Source: Candidatus Poribacteria bacterium
GTDB taxonomy: Bacteria > Poribacteria > WGA-4E > WGA-3G
Length of the DNA stretch: 64,000 nt
Direction: 5' to 3'
NCBI GenBank assembly: GCA_965205025.1
Contig: CBDBFU010000009.1
Coordinates: 32,001 to 96,000 of the forward strand
In this document: positions 16,563 through 64,000 of the stretch, piece by piece
Layout: each line of letters starts with the position of its first letter
Position numbering within the stretch: position 1 is the first letter of the stretch
Made by a program: the position numbers and the translations under genes
Notes under the pieces: generated by a model
What the model saw: the letters and a program-made list of their open reading frames with translations, nothing else
Told to the model about the DNA's origin: nothing
The model's database searches: none

Positions 16563-16832
16563 ACCGATTTCTTATACCATTTATACCATAAGGACGACTA
16601 CCCGATTTATGATCAACATGCTTTACTGGCTGTAGGAGAACCACAAGATGAAAGTGTTTGGGAGTCTTATGTCCAGCTTTGTCGTAAAGTTGCCAAAGAT
16701 AACAAAGTTGATATGAGAACCTTAGATCGCGCTTTGTACCGATTTGGTTATGTACTCTCTGTTCTGAATAATTTGGAGAACGACTTGGCATGCCTCGGTA
16801 TAAAGGTGAACGATATTGTAAATGGGTACTAA
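16563..16832 (+). pseudogene. 5'-truncated gene remnant resembling an HhH-type DNA glycosylase-like C-terminus; absent from the ORF track
   Basis: Open frame with no upstream start codon: FLYHLYHKDDYPIYDQHALLAVG...YVQLCRKVAKDNKVDMRTLDRALYRFG...GY*; TAA at 16560, just downstream of the REP cluster. Confidence 0.6.
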
Positions 16833-17103
16833 TAGATAACCACCACTTTTAACTGAATCGCAGAATTCCGATTTGAATATATTCAATCTAAAAGGAGTAG
16901 TAAATACTCTCCTAATTGGTTATTCAAAGATATCAACACTGGGTTATTATAGACTTGATTTGAAAAATTATATCGCACAAAAAACACATATAATCATAAT
17001 TATGTAGTGGGTTTAACGCAAGAATAAAAAACATTTGAACGAAAAAGTAATCATTTGGTAACTTTTTGAAAGTTGTAGGTTAGATTTATTTAGAGGAATA
17101 CAA

Positions 17104-17331
17104 ATGCCTATAAATTGGAGAGACCACATCGTTAGCACACCAGAAATATTACGGGGTAAACCGCGTATAAAAGGCACAAGGATTCCTGTAAGTCTCATTC
17201 TTAGTTACCTTGCAGCAGGATCTACCACAGACGAAATAATTGTTGAATTTCCTGATCTCAAAACGACACAGATACATGCTTGTCTTGATAATGAAAAAAT
17301 ATTGAAGAAAACCAAACCATTATACAACTAA
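17104..17331 (+). CDS. DUF433 family putative antitoxin; C-terminus possibly altered, no adjacent toxin
   Basis: IVSTPEILRGKPRIKGTRIPVSLILSYLAAG...EFPDL; GAGG RBS. Confidence 0.85.
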   Translation: MPINWRDHIVSTPEILRGKPRIKGTRIPVSLILSYLAAGSTTDEIIVEFPDLKTTQIHACLDNEKILKKTKPLYN

Positions 17332-17367
17332 ATATATTATGGAATAGTATCACACAAAATAATATTA

Positions 17368-17680
17368 AACTTGACACCTGTATTTTTATTGTGTTACTAT
17401 ATGTATTACAGGAAAAACATATCATGAAATTTTTGTTATAATACTTTCATAACTGTTATGAAACTTTCACAACAGTTATGAAAAGGAAATCGAAATCTCA
17501 TACCCCTACAAACCTATACCAGGACAGGGTTTAGAACAGTTCAAACAAGACCAGAGTATGAATTTTCTAAAAAAAATAAAAAAACTAACATTTTTTTAGG
17601 TATTTCTAAAAAACCCTTTCTGGGACTGACTTTAGAGCAGTTTAAAACAACTGGTTGAAAAAATTGTGTTGTGAAAATAC
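17368..17680 (+). repeat. ~300-bp non-coding element, copy 1 (copy 2 at 63609-63893)
   Basis: Shared blocks: TTGAC..TACTAT promoter, GTTATGAAACTTTCA.AACAGTTATGAAAAGGAAA, CCCTACAAACCTATACCA..ACAGGGTTTAGAACA, AAACCCTTTCTGGGACTGA.TTTAGA, TGTGTT.TGAAAATA. Confidence 0.85.
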
Positions 17681-17737
17681 TATTATGGGGTATCTCATAT
17701 TTTGATCGTTTCAACACAGTTTTTCTGACACTTTCCT

Positions 17738-17808
17738 CTCCCCAGAGGGGTGATATGTCTATAGAAAAAGGTATACCAACATCCTGCACTCCAGCGGAGT
17801 GCTATGTA
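17738..17808 (+). repeat. REP-like hairpin doublet
   Basis: CCCCAGAGGGGTGATATGTCTATAGAAA and GCACTCCAGCGGAGTGCTATGT. Confidence 0.75.
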
Positions 17809-17810
17809 AG

Positions 17811-17932
17811 TAATACCATTTCTGATAAATATTGTCTCTTTAAAATGTAGCACAAACTGTCAGTTTGTGCCGTGTTTCACCCCATACATAACAAAATTCT
17901 TGATGTGATAAACATTTTTAGAAATGGTATAA
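17811..17932. mobile_element. ~120-bp MITE-like element carrying a GTAG-type REP
   Basis: ATACCATTTCT...AGAAATGGTAT ends; internal GTAGCACAAACTGTCAGTTTGTGC (17847-17870). Confidence 0.65.
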
Positions 17933-18306
17933 ATAGGTGGTAACTTAGCTTAATATAATTTTTATGAGATACACTAAACAGAATTCACATCTTAAGAAAG
18001 AAGATAGAACAAAAAACAGGAAAATGAGAAATGACAATCCAAAATTTTCATAATAACACAATCAGATATAGAAAAAATAGCGAATGGCTTCAGTGGGCAG
18101 GAAATTCAGAAAAACCAGAAAAGAACACAAAAATCAAAATTCTAAAATTTCAAGAAAATTACCATAAACCCACTCTACTACAGGGATTAGAGCAATATTA
18201 CAAAGTTACACCATGTAACGAAAAGTGTAACTTTTTCATTTTACTCTCTTTCATTTTACTCTCTTTCAATTTACTAAAAAGTATCACATTAATACAGTTC
18301 CTCTTC

Positions 18307-18330
18307 GTAGGGACGGGGTTTTCCCGTCCG
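18307..18330 (+). repeat. GTAG-class REP hairpin; another at 22266-22289
   Basis: GTAG-GGACGGG-GTTTT-CCCGTCC; GTAGGA-GCGACC-TCCT-GGTCGC. Confidence 0.6.
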
Positions 18331-19015
18331 TATTTTCGATATATTATACATAGCAAATACAAAGAATCTTCCAAATCTATGATTTATAGGATATATTCGA
18401 ATATCTTGTCAAAATGGATTCAGAAGATATTTCACATTCATACGATCCCAATTCAATGGATTAAAAGAATAGGAAAAGACACAAATTTTGTCCCCACTTT
18501 ATAATTGGAACAAATTCTTGTAACCATAAAAAAGTGGCTTTAAATCCAGTGTAGTACTGACGGGAGAGAGGTTTTACCAATGTCACACCATGTGACAAAA
18601 AGTGTAACTTTTTTAAACGAATAAATAATAAATATATTACTATTGTGAACAGTAATAAATAGCAAATTTACAGAAGAATTACCCTTGGTTCAATATAATA
18701 CATGGCAAGGAACAAAGCACTCTCAATATAATGATATATGAGATATGACCTATAAACTATACACAAGTTGGAATTGACATAATAATTGCAAATTTTCAGA
18801 GTATTCAGAGTAAATCAGAAAAACCCAAAATGTAGAAAACAGCAAAGAAGCCATACTGTGACTGACTTCATAGGAATTAATAACTTTTCCCAGCAACATT
18901 TACTCTGAAAATTTCGCTGATACTTGGAAACAACTAAAAACTGTAAACTAAAAACTATATGATCCGTGATATTCATACCAAAAACTTTACATACCTAATA
19001 TAAGAAAGACTCAAC

Positions 19016-21067
19016 ATGCACTACACATCACAACAAAACGACTGGTTAGTCCAACCCTTTGAGCAACCCGCGACAGTAGAAGAAATGGATAATCAACTTA
19101 TTATCAGTAACGGACTAATTCAGCGAAGGTTCGTAACCACTCCCAATTTCGCAACAATAGATTACACCAATCTAATCACAGGTAACAGTCTTCTGCGTGG
19201 CATCAAACCTGAAGCTATACTTACGATAAACGGACAGGAATATGAAGTTGGTGGCTTAAAAGGTCAACCAGATTACGCCTATCTTGATGATAAATGGATT
19301 CCTGATTTGACCAGTGATCCTAACGCATTTCAATATCAAGAATATCGAATTAGTGCACCAGAAATGCGATACCCATGGGTAGACAGACGTACGGAAACAT
19401 CTTCACCGTATCCACCAGAAGGTGTAACACTGACCGTCGTCTTCTCATCTCCACCATCCCTCGAACCACTTCAAATTTGTGTGCATTATGAACTATACCA
19501 AGGTATTCCCGTATTATCTAAATGGATTACTATTCACAATGAGAGTCAGAAAACAATCGAAATTGATGCTCTAAGTAGTGAAATCCTTGCTGTCAATGAA
19601 CAGGAGAAACACCGTCTACATGTGGAAAGTGATTATGCTTTCAGCAAAATGGAGACAACACAGTGGGGACCAGATGAAGAATATCTGACACAGACCGATT
19701 ATCTCTATCAGATGCCACTTTTGATGACAAGCACGTATCCACTCGGTCCTGGCGTACTTCTTCAACCGGGAGAGTCATTTGAAAGCTTTCGCACCTATGA
19801 AATCCTACATGATAGCGATGATCGTGAACGAAAAGGACTCACACATCGTAAGATGTATCGAACACTTGCACCACAAGTTACCGAAAATCCAATTCTCATG
19901 CACGTTCGAAGTGCCGAACCAGACGCTGTTCGCTTAGCAATCGATCAGTGTGCTGAAGTCGGATTTGAAATGGTGATTATGACCTTTGGCAGTGGATACA
20001 ATGTTGAAAGTGAAGATCCTGAATATATCGCAAGAATGAAGGAATTAGCTGACTATGCTCATAGCAAAAACATTCAACTTGGTGGTTATACTTTAATGTG
20101 TGCATCACGTGGTGTAGGAGAAGAATTCAACTGTATTGATCCTGATACTGGAAAACCCGGAAGTAGATTTGGACAAAGTGCATGTCTCGCAAGTGAATGG
20201 GGAGATGGTTATGTTGAGAGAGTACTGAATTTCATGGACGCAACCGGAATGGATATCATTGAGACCGATGGTCCATACCATGGTGATGTCTGTGCCTCTA
20301 CAACCCACAAACACCATAACGGTTTAGCGGATTCACAATTGCGTCAGTGGGAAGCATGTGTGAATTTCTATCACGAATGTAGAAAACGCGGTATCTATAT
20401 CAATTCGCCAGATAATTATTACCTCAATGGTTCAAACAAATGTGGTATGGGGTATCGCGAAACAAACTTCAGTTTACCACGAGAACAACAGATTCTAATA
20501 GCAAGGCAAAATATCTACGATGCGACATACCAAAAGACACCCAGTATGGGATGGATGTTCGTTCCGTTAGTGGAATATCACGGCGGTGGACAGGCAGCAA
20601 CGTTTGAACCGTTGTGTGAACACCTTGAGGACTACGAATCACACCTCGCACAGAACTTCGGTAGCGGTGTGATTGCATGTTATCGTGGTCCGAGACTTTT
20701 CGATACAGAAGAGACAAAAGCTGTTGTTAAGAAATGGGTCGACTTTTTTAAACAGTATCGTCCTATCTTGGAATCGGATGTGATTCATGTACGCCGTCCA
20801 GATGGACGATCTATTGATTGTATACTACATGCTAATCCCCAACTTAACCCCTGTGGATTGGCAATGCTATATAATTCTACTAATCAGACACAAGAAACAA
20901 CGCTGAAATTACCTGTCTATTATACCGGATTGAGTGAAATAGCTAAAATTCGAGAAAAAGAAGATGAACCAAAAGCATACAAGATAGACCGAAATTACAA
21001 CATTGAGATTCCAATTAAAATGGAAGCGAATAGCATTACCTATCTTGTAATAGATTCTGGATCATGA
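19016..21067 (+). CDS. Alpha-galactosidase-like glycoside hydrolase (GH36/clan D-like TIM barrel)
   Basis: 683 aa; N-terminal beta-sandwich (VHYELYQGIPVLSKW), IDQCAEVGFEMVIMTFGSG, ACLASEW, IETDGPY. Confidence 0.7.
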   Translation: MHYTSQQNDWLVQPFEQPATVEEMDNQLIISNGLIQRRFVTTPNFATIDYTNLITGNSLLRGIKPEAILTINGQEYEVGGLKGQPDYAYLDDKWIPDLTSDPNAFQYQEYRISAPEMRYPWVDRRTETSSPYPPEGVTLTVVFSSPPSLEPLQICVHYELYQGIPVLSKWITIHNESQKTIEIDALSSEILAVNEQEKHRLHVESDYAFSKMETTQWGPDEEYLTQTDYLYQMPLLMTSTYPLGPGVLLQPGESFESFRTYEILHDSDDRERKGLTHRKMYRTLAPQVTENPILMHVRSAEPDAVRLAIDQCAEVGFEMVIMTFGSGYNVESEDPEYIARMKELADYAHSKNIQLGGYTLMCASRGVGEEFNCIDPDTGKPGSRFGQSACLASEWGDGYVERVLNFMDATGMDIIETDGPYHGDVCASTTHKHHNGLADSQLRQWEACVNFYHECRKRGIYINSPDNYYLNGSNKCGMGYRETNFSLPREQQILIARQNIYDATYQKTPSMGWMFVPLVEYHGGGQAATFEPLCEHLEDYESHLAQNFGSGVIACYRGPRLFDTEETKAVVKKWVDFFKQYRPILESDVIHVRRPDGRSIDCILHANPQLNPCGLAMLYNSTNQTQETTLKLPVYYTGLSEIAKIREKEDEPKAYKIDRNYNIEIPIKMEANSITYLVIDSGS

Positions 21068-21255
21068 TACCTCAAATCGTTCTATACCAACAAATTCTGG
21101 CATAATGTATTCATGCCTGATTAGATAAATAATCTCAATTGTGCATTTACATTTTCTGCATTAATGTCTATAATAGGAATGTAATACCGTTTTCAATTGA
21201 AATATCTACATTACGATTTTTCATCTAAATAGGACTAATTAGTTGTAAAAATTGG

Positions 21256-63292: not shown

Positions 63293-63608
63293 CCTACAAA
63301 AATTAGTATTGTAACGTATACACATAGGAAGAGGATTAGAAAAATGATACACCAACGAATTTTTAAAGTATTCCAAGGCTGAAGCGCGGGGTAATGATCG
63401 TCCGTCCTTCAATCAATCCCAAAGAAACCATCAGACTATAAAAAAATGAAGAAAACACCCATCAATAACAACTAACATACATATATCACAAAAACAGAAA
63501 ATAATATTAACAATGCTTGTCAAACTGAAATAAAATTGTGCCATATTATAAAGTTCATTTTAATTACAAACTCACATCAATATAAACATATTACGAAAAT
63601 CATATTTT

Positions 63609-63893
63609 AACTTGACTCATATAATATATTATGTTACTATATTTATCACAATAAAAGCATGTTCTGAAAAGTTGTTATGAAACTTTCATAACAGTTATGA
63701 AAAGGAAAATCAAAATCTAACACCCTACAAACCTATACCACAACAGGGTTTAGAACACTTAAAACAAAATGAAGTATGAAAATCTAAAAAATATAAAAAA
63801 ATGACGGTTTTTCAGGTATATCTATAAACCCTTTCTGGGACTGATTTTAGACCAGATTTAATTTTGGAATTAAAAAAATGTGTTATGAAAATA
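63609..63893 (+). repeat. ~300-bp non-coding element, copy 2
   Basis: Colinear with 17368-17680; TTGACT-N17-TACTAT at 63612-63640. Confidence 0.85.
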
Positions 63894-64000
63894 AAAACAC
63901 AAGAGTTTACGCAATTTGTAATACGAAGGAAATAAAATGTATATTTGTTGTAAGGGGTCTAATTGTTTTCTATTACCGCAAACATCTTATACAATTTACA

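Follow-up and report, generated by a model that had tools for sequence, protein, structure and literature searches.

What is the element of about 300 bp that stands twice in the window (the whole stretch of 64,000 nucleotides that was analysed), and why should a sequence with promoter-like and palindromic motifs recur in the genome of this Poribacteria bacterium? An earlier note, made from the letters alone, had proposed a family of non-coding RNAs or a protein-bound recombination or regulatory platform, such as an island end or an orphan leader. The repeat is indeed present at both of the sites described there, 17368-17680 and 63609-63893, with a mean column identity of 80% when windows of 431 nt are aligned. 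The promoter motif of copy 1 consists of TTGACA (17371-17376), a spacer of 18 nt and TACTAT (17395-17400), with TG at 17392-17393; that of copy 2 consists of TTGACT (63612-63617), a spacer of 17 nt and TACTAT (63635-63640), with TG at 63632-63633. In both copies, -35 and -10 hexamers of the sigma-70 type are thus spaced by 17±1 nt and the TG lies upstream of the -10. Two palindrome units are found in copy 1 (17445-17483) and one unit plus an upstream half-site in copy 2 (63674-63702), the extra unit of about 20 bp belonging to copy 1, as first read. The two AAACC...TTTAGA boxes (17510-17537 and 17611-17639 in copy 1) and the closing TGTGTTGTGAAAATA (17665-17679) were also recovered. An alignment of 33 copies from three genomes bears out that the motif blocks are kept and the spacers are variable.

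Two points of the first description need revision. The repeat does not end at 17680, as uninterrupted copies stay similar for about 800 bases further; copy 1 seems to stop there because other repeats have been inserted at about 17709-17978. The statement that no credible open reading frame exists is correct for 17368-17680 and fails for the whole element, which contains a conserved open frame at 18031-18504. The layout in the window is as follows.

17290 to 17708, forward strand: copy 1, 5' part of an element of about 1.2 kb, containing the 300-bp module (nhmmer, C9:49290-49708, model positions 6-471)
17290 to 17331, forward strand: conserved 5' block, ..ATTGAAGAAAACCAAACC..CAACTAA (sequence inspection, copies compared)
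17371 to 17400, forward strand: P1, sigma-70-type promoter-like site, TTGACA-18 nt-TACTAT with TG (promoter scan, conservation)
17445 to 17483, forward strand: two tandem palindromes, TTTCATAAC-T-GTTATGAAA, C, TTTCACAAC-A-GTTATGAAA
17510 to 17537, forward strand: box 1 (AAACCTATACCAGGACAGGGTTTAGAAC), strongly conserved (33-copy alignment)
17611 to 17639, forward strand: box 2 (AAACCCTTTCTGGGACTGACTTTAGAGCA), strongly conserved (33-copy alignment)
17665 to 17679, forward strand: closing block TGTGTTGTGAAAATA (33-copy alignment)
17709 to 17978, no strand assigned: insert of unrelated short repeats that interrupts copy 1 (depth profile, BLAST, gap between nhmmer pieces)
17979 to 18736, forward strand: continuation of copy 1, model positions 470-1198 (nhmmer, C9:49979-50736)
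18031 to 18504, forward strand: conserved open frame, 157 codons (list of open reading frames, copy comparison)
18311 to 18339, forward strand: GC-rich hairpin GGACGGGG-TTT-TCCCGTCC followed by GTATTTTCGA, terminator-like, with GTAG before it (inside the open frame)
18581 to 18610, forward strand: hairpin TGTCACA-CCA-TGTGACA followed by AAAAAGTGTAAC (nested short repeat)
18975 to 18995, forward strand: terminal inverted repeat (ATACCAAAAACTTTACATACC) at the right end of copy 1, with 2 mismatches in 21 to an ISKra4-type insertion sequence end
19016 to 21067, forward strand: downstream host gene of 683 aa, its ATG 20 bp past the right terminal repeat
63584 to 64000, forward strand: copy 2, model positions 107-759, running off the window end (nhmmer)
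63879 to 63893, forward strand: closing block of copy 2 (alignment with copy 1)

After 18736, copy 1 is broken by a second insert, and the terminal repeat at 18975-18995 follows. The first insert (17709-17978) is made of GTAG-tagged hairpin repeats, REP-like and present in about 90-100 genome copies each, which follow the closing block directly. In other copies the insertions at this point are different ones (for example an IS630-type MITE in the C2 copy), which makes this junction a hot spot of insertion. At the opposite edge, the DUF433 open reading frame (17104-17331) takes its last 14 or so codons and its stop codon from the conserved left block of the element, so that insertion or a later deletion remodelled the C-terminal tail of that protein. 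A hairpin motif of the form GTYACA-CCA-TGTRAC followed by RAAAAGTGTAAC is repeated within the element, at 18581-18610 and, as a near-copy inside the open frame, at about 18205-18235; the genome as a whole contains about 100 examples. With a GTGTAAC..TTTTT core that resembles the core of the terminal repeat, the motif may represent a miniature element of related origin or the remnant of a site for transposase binding.

The size of the family was determined in the window's own genome, that of a sponge symbiont (5.66 Mb, 33 contigs). The 313-nt query returned about 20 more long matches at 72-87% identity with E values from 1e-38 to 1e-104, far above chance, and a profile search places the module at 22 loci, which agrees with the early view of it as a family. 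It can be seen from these copies that the 300 bp are the 5' module of a longer repeat of about 1.2 kb (full unit about 1.1-1.3 kb). In uninterrupted copies such as C18:33971-35119 and C4:117113-118233, similarity begins about 50 bp before the position equivalent to 17368 and lasts until about 1075-1240 bp beyond it. A full-unit nhmmer model of 1245 positions recognizes 68 merged loci, divided into 22 with the 5' module, 41 with the shared 3' part of about 490 bp only, and 5 intermediates. The 41 loci form a sister family, which shares the 3' half, has a different and distantly related 5' half, and is bounded by perfect terminal inverted repeats of 21-22 bp, GG(G)TGTGTAAAGTTTTTGGCAT.

The distribution of the module is patchy. 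Only 3 of the 61 sampled genomes of the phylum contain it (the window genome, G000, and two others, G009 and G043), all from one genus, within which it was found in the window genome and in 2 of 24 others. Two G009 copies are orthologous to copies in the window genome, because their flanks are shared. For the pair C2:184104-184541 and L044:1200-1860 (G009), the element differs by about 13% and the flanks by about 8%. The same pair also differs in palindrome number (two and one) and palindrome type (TAC, and a mix of CAC and CAT), indicating that the palindrome array changes more quickly than the element around it. At C11:35810-40359 the window genome holds a sister-family element, and the same locus in G009 (L032) and G043 (L037) holds a copy with the 300-bp module between conserved flanks; judged by these occupants, this intergenic locus is a repeatedly hit site. 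At two further loci (C21 at about 124890 and C31 at about 14190), the left edge carries the pyrimidine tract CCATCCTTCCATCC, which reads GGAAGG-ATG on the opposite strand, and divergent upstream frames appear to start there. This hints that the left edge of the element can supply a ribosome-binding site and start codon to a divergent neighbour.

The right end indicates what kind of repeat this is. A match to an insertion sequence end or a MITE was the outcome that the earlier note had set against its own reading, and such a match was found: on its right the repeat closes with a terminal inverted repeat that belongs to an ISKra4-family insertion sequence. In the window genome this repeat occurs at 179 sites with up to 4 mismatches. 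At up to 2 mismatches it is present in all 40 genomes of the genus, with 3 to 252 sites each, and a reversed control pattern gave 0 everywhere. An exact-match scan of a collection of species-representative genomes returned 105 stretches; among the 80 listed, 78 are from Poribacteria and 2 from an 'uncultured bacterium'. A cyanobacterial origin was rejected, as the HIP1 motif occurs only 9 times. In several other Poribacteria genomes, inverted pairs of the repeat lie 1451-1457 bp apart and enclose an open reading frame of 439 aa, which is an ISKra4 family transposase (NCBIfam NF033572, 239 bits with a cut-off of 205; no Pfam match). Perfect 9-bp target duplications flank 5 of 8 intact copies of this insertion sequence in those genomes, and at least 8 of 29 close left-right pairs that bound short elements with the same ends have direct flank duplications of 8-9 bp.

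The intact insertion sequence was found only in other Poribacteria genomes. The window genome holds transposase fragments only, corresponding by tblastn to aa 2-176, 2-147 and 352-439 and located at C30:33666-34186, C3:184006-184440 and C23:105860-106119; they are the sole remains of the autonomous partner. No autonomous copy was found in that genome, where left and right repeats paired at distances of up to 6 kb have nothing but host-like frames between them. Between the insertion sequence and the 1.2-kb element, sequence is shared over the terminal 25-31 bp only. The window element has the same terminal inverted repeat as the 1.45-kb Poribacteria insertion sequences, and 8-9-bp duplications occur with these ends; it differs from an ISKra4-family insertion sequence in that it encodes no transposase and in that most copies with the 300-bp module are without a left repeat. 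Neither copy 1 nor nearly any other module copy has the left terminal repeat, one copy retaining a 15-nt remnant. Because the left ends are missing, target duplications are unreadable for the module copies.

A clean empty site was not found by comparison with G009 and G043. Several copies in these two genomes sit where the window genome has other sequence, and the comparison failed because whole intergenic regions have been replaced. Contigs from four sequencing runs over 16800-21100 likewise yielded no clean empty site, only joints and fragments derived from repeats. A mobilizing partner of the IS630 type was considered and rejected, as the four IS630 families of the genome (31 DDE_3 matches) have different ends. 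Many dispersed copies with no transposase gene inside are what is observed of a non-autonomous element. The term MITE in its strict sense does not fit, since the full unit of about 1.1-1.3 kb has an open frame of about 150 codons, against the small non-coding elements for which the term is used. On sequence grounds, the 1.2-kb repeat is most probably a decayed non-autonomous transposon mobilized by ISKra4-type transposition. The 'recombination platform' of the earlier note accordingly gives way to the probable end of a transposon relic. Its island end or CRISPR-type leader is not supported either, because the module leads into the remainder of the element, beyond which stand ordinary protein genes unrelated to one another; no tRNA was found in the window and no integrase among the 20+20 neighbours scanned.

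The best-conserved block of the module is its promoter. Of the 33 aligned copies, which come from three genomes, 32 have the extended -10 TGTTACTAT and 26 have TTGAC; conservation is also good in both boxes and in the closing block. P1 of copy 1 matches the consensus at 10 of 12 positions and has the TG in addition, which places the predicted transcription start at about 17407, and P1 is the top site in promoter scans of two copies. The sister family keeps TTGTCA-17-TACAAT at the homologous place. Promoter-like matches as such are no commoner than in shuffled sequence (7 against 9.6±3.2 and 8 against 6.5±2.9), so it is conservation that supports the promoter call. As a regulatory platform, therefore, the first proposal retains its substance in this conserved promoter-like block and in a compensated palindrome that is described below. 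P1 probably feeds transcription into neighbouring genes.

Where the copies sit relative to genes accords with such an arrangement. Orientation was counted with simple longest-ORF gene calls covering 83% of the genome and including 40 sister-family loci. The next downstream gene lies on the element's strand at 21 of 21 module loci (p=9.5e-7) and at 37 of 40 sister-family loci (p=1.9e-8), or 58 of 61 combined (binomial p=3.3e-14). On the left, the nearest gene shares the element's strand at 11 of 22 module loci and 18 of 40 sister-family loci, a combined split of 29:33. If transcription leaves the right end and not the left, this one-sided bias would be the trace of selection. The bias of the sister family, which has another 5' half, means that the shared 3' half may contribute to it or cause it. 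Among 8 intact insertion sequence copies, the downstream gene is on the same strand in 5, on the opposite strand in 2 and undetermined in 1, with no clear bias.

The distances are short as well. In 11 of 32 measured loci the right terminal repeat is at most 91 bp from the predicted start codon, and in the window it is 20 bp away (ATG at 19016); over such short distances a further promoter could hardly fit in between. As an outward promoter close to that end, a TATAAT conserved in 17 of 24 copies at about 70 bp from it was considered and rejected, since its -35 is at an unworkable spacing of 21 nt. Scan matches for outward promoters in the 3' half reach 9 of 12 consensus positions at best. In the module family, the GC hairpin between P1 and the right end could stop transcripts inside the element. 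The downstream genes themselves are of many kinds. Sixteen of the 20 outside the window have Pfam matches, all different, and they include ThuA, ThiF-rhodanese, RibD, LarA, VWA, cupin and a polysaccharide exporter, with no functional theme. The upstream genes are also mixed, and as only 4 of 22 upstream neighbours are TA- or defence-like, the general link to such genes that had been drawn from the two window copies is not upheld.

We consider it most probable, at roughly 60%, that the 300 bp are the promoter-and-leader module of an old non-autonomous transposon that was mobilized by ISKra4 and transcribes rightwards into the neighbouring gene. An ISKra4-family transposase, no longer intact in the genome, would have moved the 1.2-kb element by way of the shared terminal repeats. 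The module would act as a sigma-70-type extended -10 promoter, with a short hairpin or palindrome about 40-75 nt into the predicted transcript, an AT-rich leader after it, and then a translated-looking open frame. Transcription would cross the element rightwards and leave it at that end, and such read-out would explain why the surviving copies stand almost only ahead of a gene and point at it. What has been observed is the relatedness of the copies within the repeat family, the terminal repeat together with its insertion sequence partner, the conservation of the promoter block, the covariation of the hairpin and the orientation bias; the firing of the promoter, the reach of transcripts into the neighbouring gene and the role of the hairpin are predicted from them.

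The same observations could, though this is unlikely, be left by an inert relic. The blocks would then be alike by descent from a few master elements whose promoter served the transposon, and the bias would reflect the purging of insertions made harmful by antisense transcription or termination. The C2/L044 orthologues, being further apart in the element (about 13%) than in the flanks (about 8%), behave as expected under weak or no constraint, and the copies are only 72-87% alike in a genome with no transposase left. Inert descent is hard to reconcile with an extended -10 kept in 32 of 33 copies while the adjoining spacers vary. Moreover, a bias of 58 in 61 still requires an element that emits or blocks transcription directionally, and genes starting 4-60 bp past the terminal repeat must be transcribed through the element or from it.

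The interior of the element contains the open frame of about 150 codons, which is open in most copies (157 codons at 18031-18504 in copy 1) and has the purine-rich stretch AGGAAAA before its ATG. Stop-creating substitutions are depleted in it, with 4 observed and 16.4±3.8 expected (P=0.0002), and two control frames show no depletion (22 against 14.9, and 20 against 19.1). The frame's indels among the ten main copies measure 21, 15, 15 and 27 nt. Diversity at codon positions 1, 2 and 3 is equal (0.127, 0.139 and 0.136), and dN/dS is about 0.8. The stop depletion together with this neutral-like codon pattern suggests that the frame is kept translatable without a constrained product. That it carries transcription across the element is a speculation. 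Carried one step further, the idea becomes an orientation-locked expression cassette, in which one promoter and hairpin set stands before about 20 unrelated genes and the frame is translatable only to protect transcription from polarity over 1 kb. So complete an arrangement is rather improbable; if true, a transposon would have built up a set of co-regulated genes in a symbiont that has not been cultivated.

A more conventional role for the frame would make the module the promoter and 5' UTR of a real protein gene of about 150 aa that travels on the transposon. Openness in most copies, the shortage of new stops relative to the control frames, the indel lengths and the purine-rich stretch before the ATG all agree with a passenger gene of this kind. 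Equal diversity at the three codon positions and a dN/dS of about 0.8 do not, and the database relatives, about 90 in clusters of one or two sequences, have no Pfam domains. No longer relatives of the frame, which could represent a parent transposase, were found among the database sequences, and the frame of copy 1 has no Pfam match. The only invariant peptide block, KVTPCNEKCNFF, falls on a nucleotide hairpin motif of which another example stands in non-coding sequence near the 3' end. A genuine passenger gene is therefore doubtful. Capsule-locus or sigma-factor leaders, which had been considered from the downstream frames of about 150 aa, were rejected for the reason that those frames are themselves part of the repeat.

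The palindromes allow another explanation, equally doubtful, in which the transposon has spread a regulon: the palindrome would be the operator of a dimeric DNA-binding protein, and about 20 genes would share one input. A 9-1-9 dyad symmetry just downstream of the promoter, with the centres of the two-unit array about 20 bp apart, is a plausible form for an operator, and the symmetry is well maintained. In the alignment, 96.5% of the cells pair, against 90.1±0.7 in shuffles, and cells with double changes number 21 against 6.5±1.7, neither value being reached in any of 500 shuffles; slid registers of the hairpin give zero double changes. The substitutions are compensatory. At columns 118 and 130, 21 copies have C-G and 11 have U-A; at columns 120 and 128, 21 have C-G, 8 have U-A and 3 have C-A; and at columns 117 and 131, 30 have U-A and 2 have G-C. 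Three symmetric variants result, TTTCATAAC/GTTATGAAA, TTTTACAAC/GTTGTAAAA and TTTCACAAC/GTTGTGAAA, and in most copies the upstream half-site is of the same variant type as the palindrome. In copy 1 it is the second tandem palindrome that is the counterpart of this family-wide hairpin. The coexistence of CAT, TAC and CAC variants, two of them within the window genome, fits base pairing better than the specificity of one protein, and the pattern points to a hairpin in the nucleic acid more than to the operator of a single protein. A regulon is further weakened by the fact that no candidate regulator is linked to the copies and that the downstream genes have no common theme.

Pairing does not extend much beyond this hairpin. 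RNAalifold on the 33 copies predicts three short helices only (consensus -5.9 kcal/mol over 341 columns), and compensatory changes occur in the single 8-bp hairpin formed by the palindrome and in neither of the other two. Rfam gave 0 matches at the gathering score in the window and 0 at E<=1 in 17250-19050. A long-range pairing of box 1 with box 2 was also rejected, the boxes being partly complementary in the window genome, not so in the G043 copies, and not paired in the RNAalifold prediction. The structured non-coding RNA family of the first proposal is thus not supported. A multi-copy RNA gene running from P1 to the GC hairpin as a transcript of about 600 nt is the least probable reading, for although one strand carries both the promoter and the terminator-like hairpin (separated by about 900 nt in copy 1 and about 600 nt in uninterrupted copies) and one hairpin has covariation support, no other conserved structure and no Rfam match exist, the putative RNA would include a Shine-Dalgarno-like stretch as well as an open frame, and the terminator-like hairpin is degenerate in one sub-lineage.

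Several known kinds of mobile DNA resemble the promoter-bearing transposon that we prefer. Mobile insertion cassettes (MICs) consist of insertion sequence ends around cargo other than a transposase. The Poribacteria element is like them in its IS-type ends and in the 1.2 kb of unrelated sequence with an open frame, and it is unlike them in that its 'cargo' frame does not evolve as a protein gene. The Correia elements of Neisseria, as two reports describe them, are promoter-bearing MITEs of about 100-150 bp with demonstrated promoter activity (PMC10969869; PMC3575422). By the same accounts, the two share a non-autonomous, multi-copy nature, IS-type terminal repeats, a position mostly just upstream of genes and sigma-70-like promoter sequences, of a kind that can drive the neighbouring gene. 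Compared with that description of Correia elements, the Poribacteria element is larger (about 1.2 kb), has an open frame and is unrelated inside to its parent insertion sequence beyond 25-31 bp; its bias is strong and one-sided (58 of 61), and its promoter is predicted from sequence. Putative mobile promoters (Matus-Garcia, Nijveen and van Passel 2012, as described in PMC3575422) were defined on the region from -150 to -50 relative to the start codon. Going by that definition, homologous upstream sequence before unrelated genes in one genome is a common feature, whereas the Poribacteria promoter is about 1 kb upstream and only the right end of the element falls between -150 and -50. No description of the Poribacteria family was found in a literature search, which listed general MITE papers that do not mention Poribacteria.

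These findings remove a candidate 'new ncRNA or recombination platform' and replace it with a well-defined transposon family of Poribacteria, for which ISKra4-type ends, a 9-bp duplication and the loss of the autonomous partner are documented. They also carry a warning for annotation, as many 'hypothetical proteins' of about 150 aa in Poribacteria genomes are frames within this repeat. The orientation bias of 58 in 61, together with genes that start tens of bases past a transposon end, provides a clean natural case in which decayed mobile DNA would supply promoters to the host genes of an unculturable symbiont.
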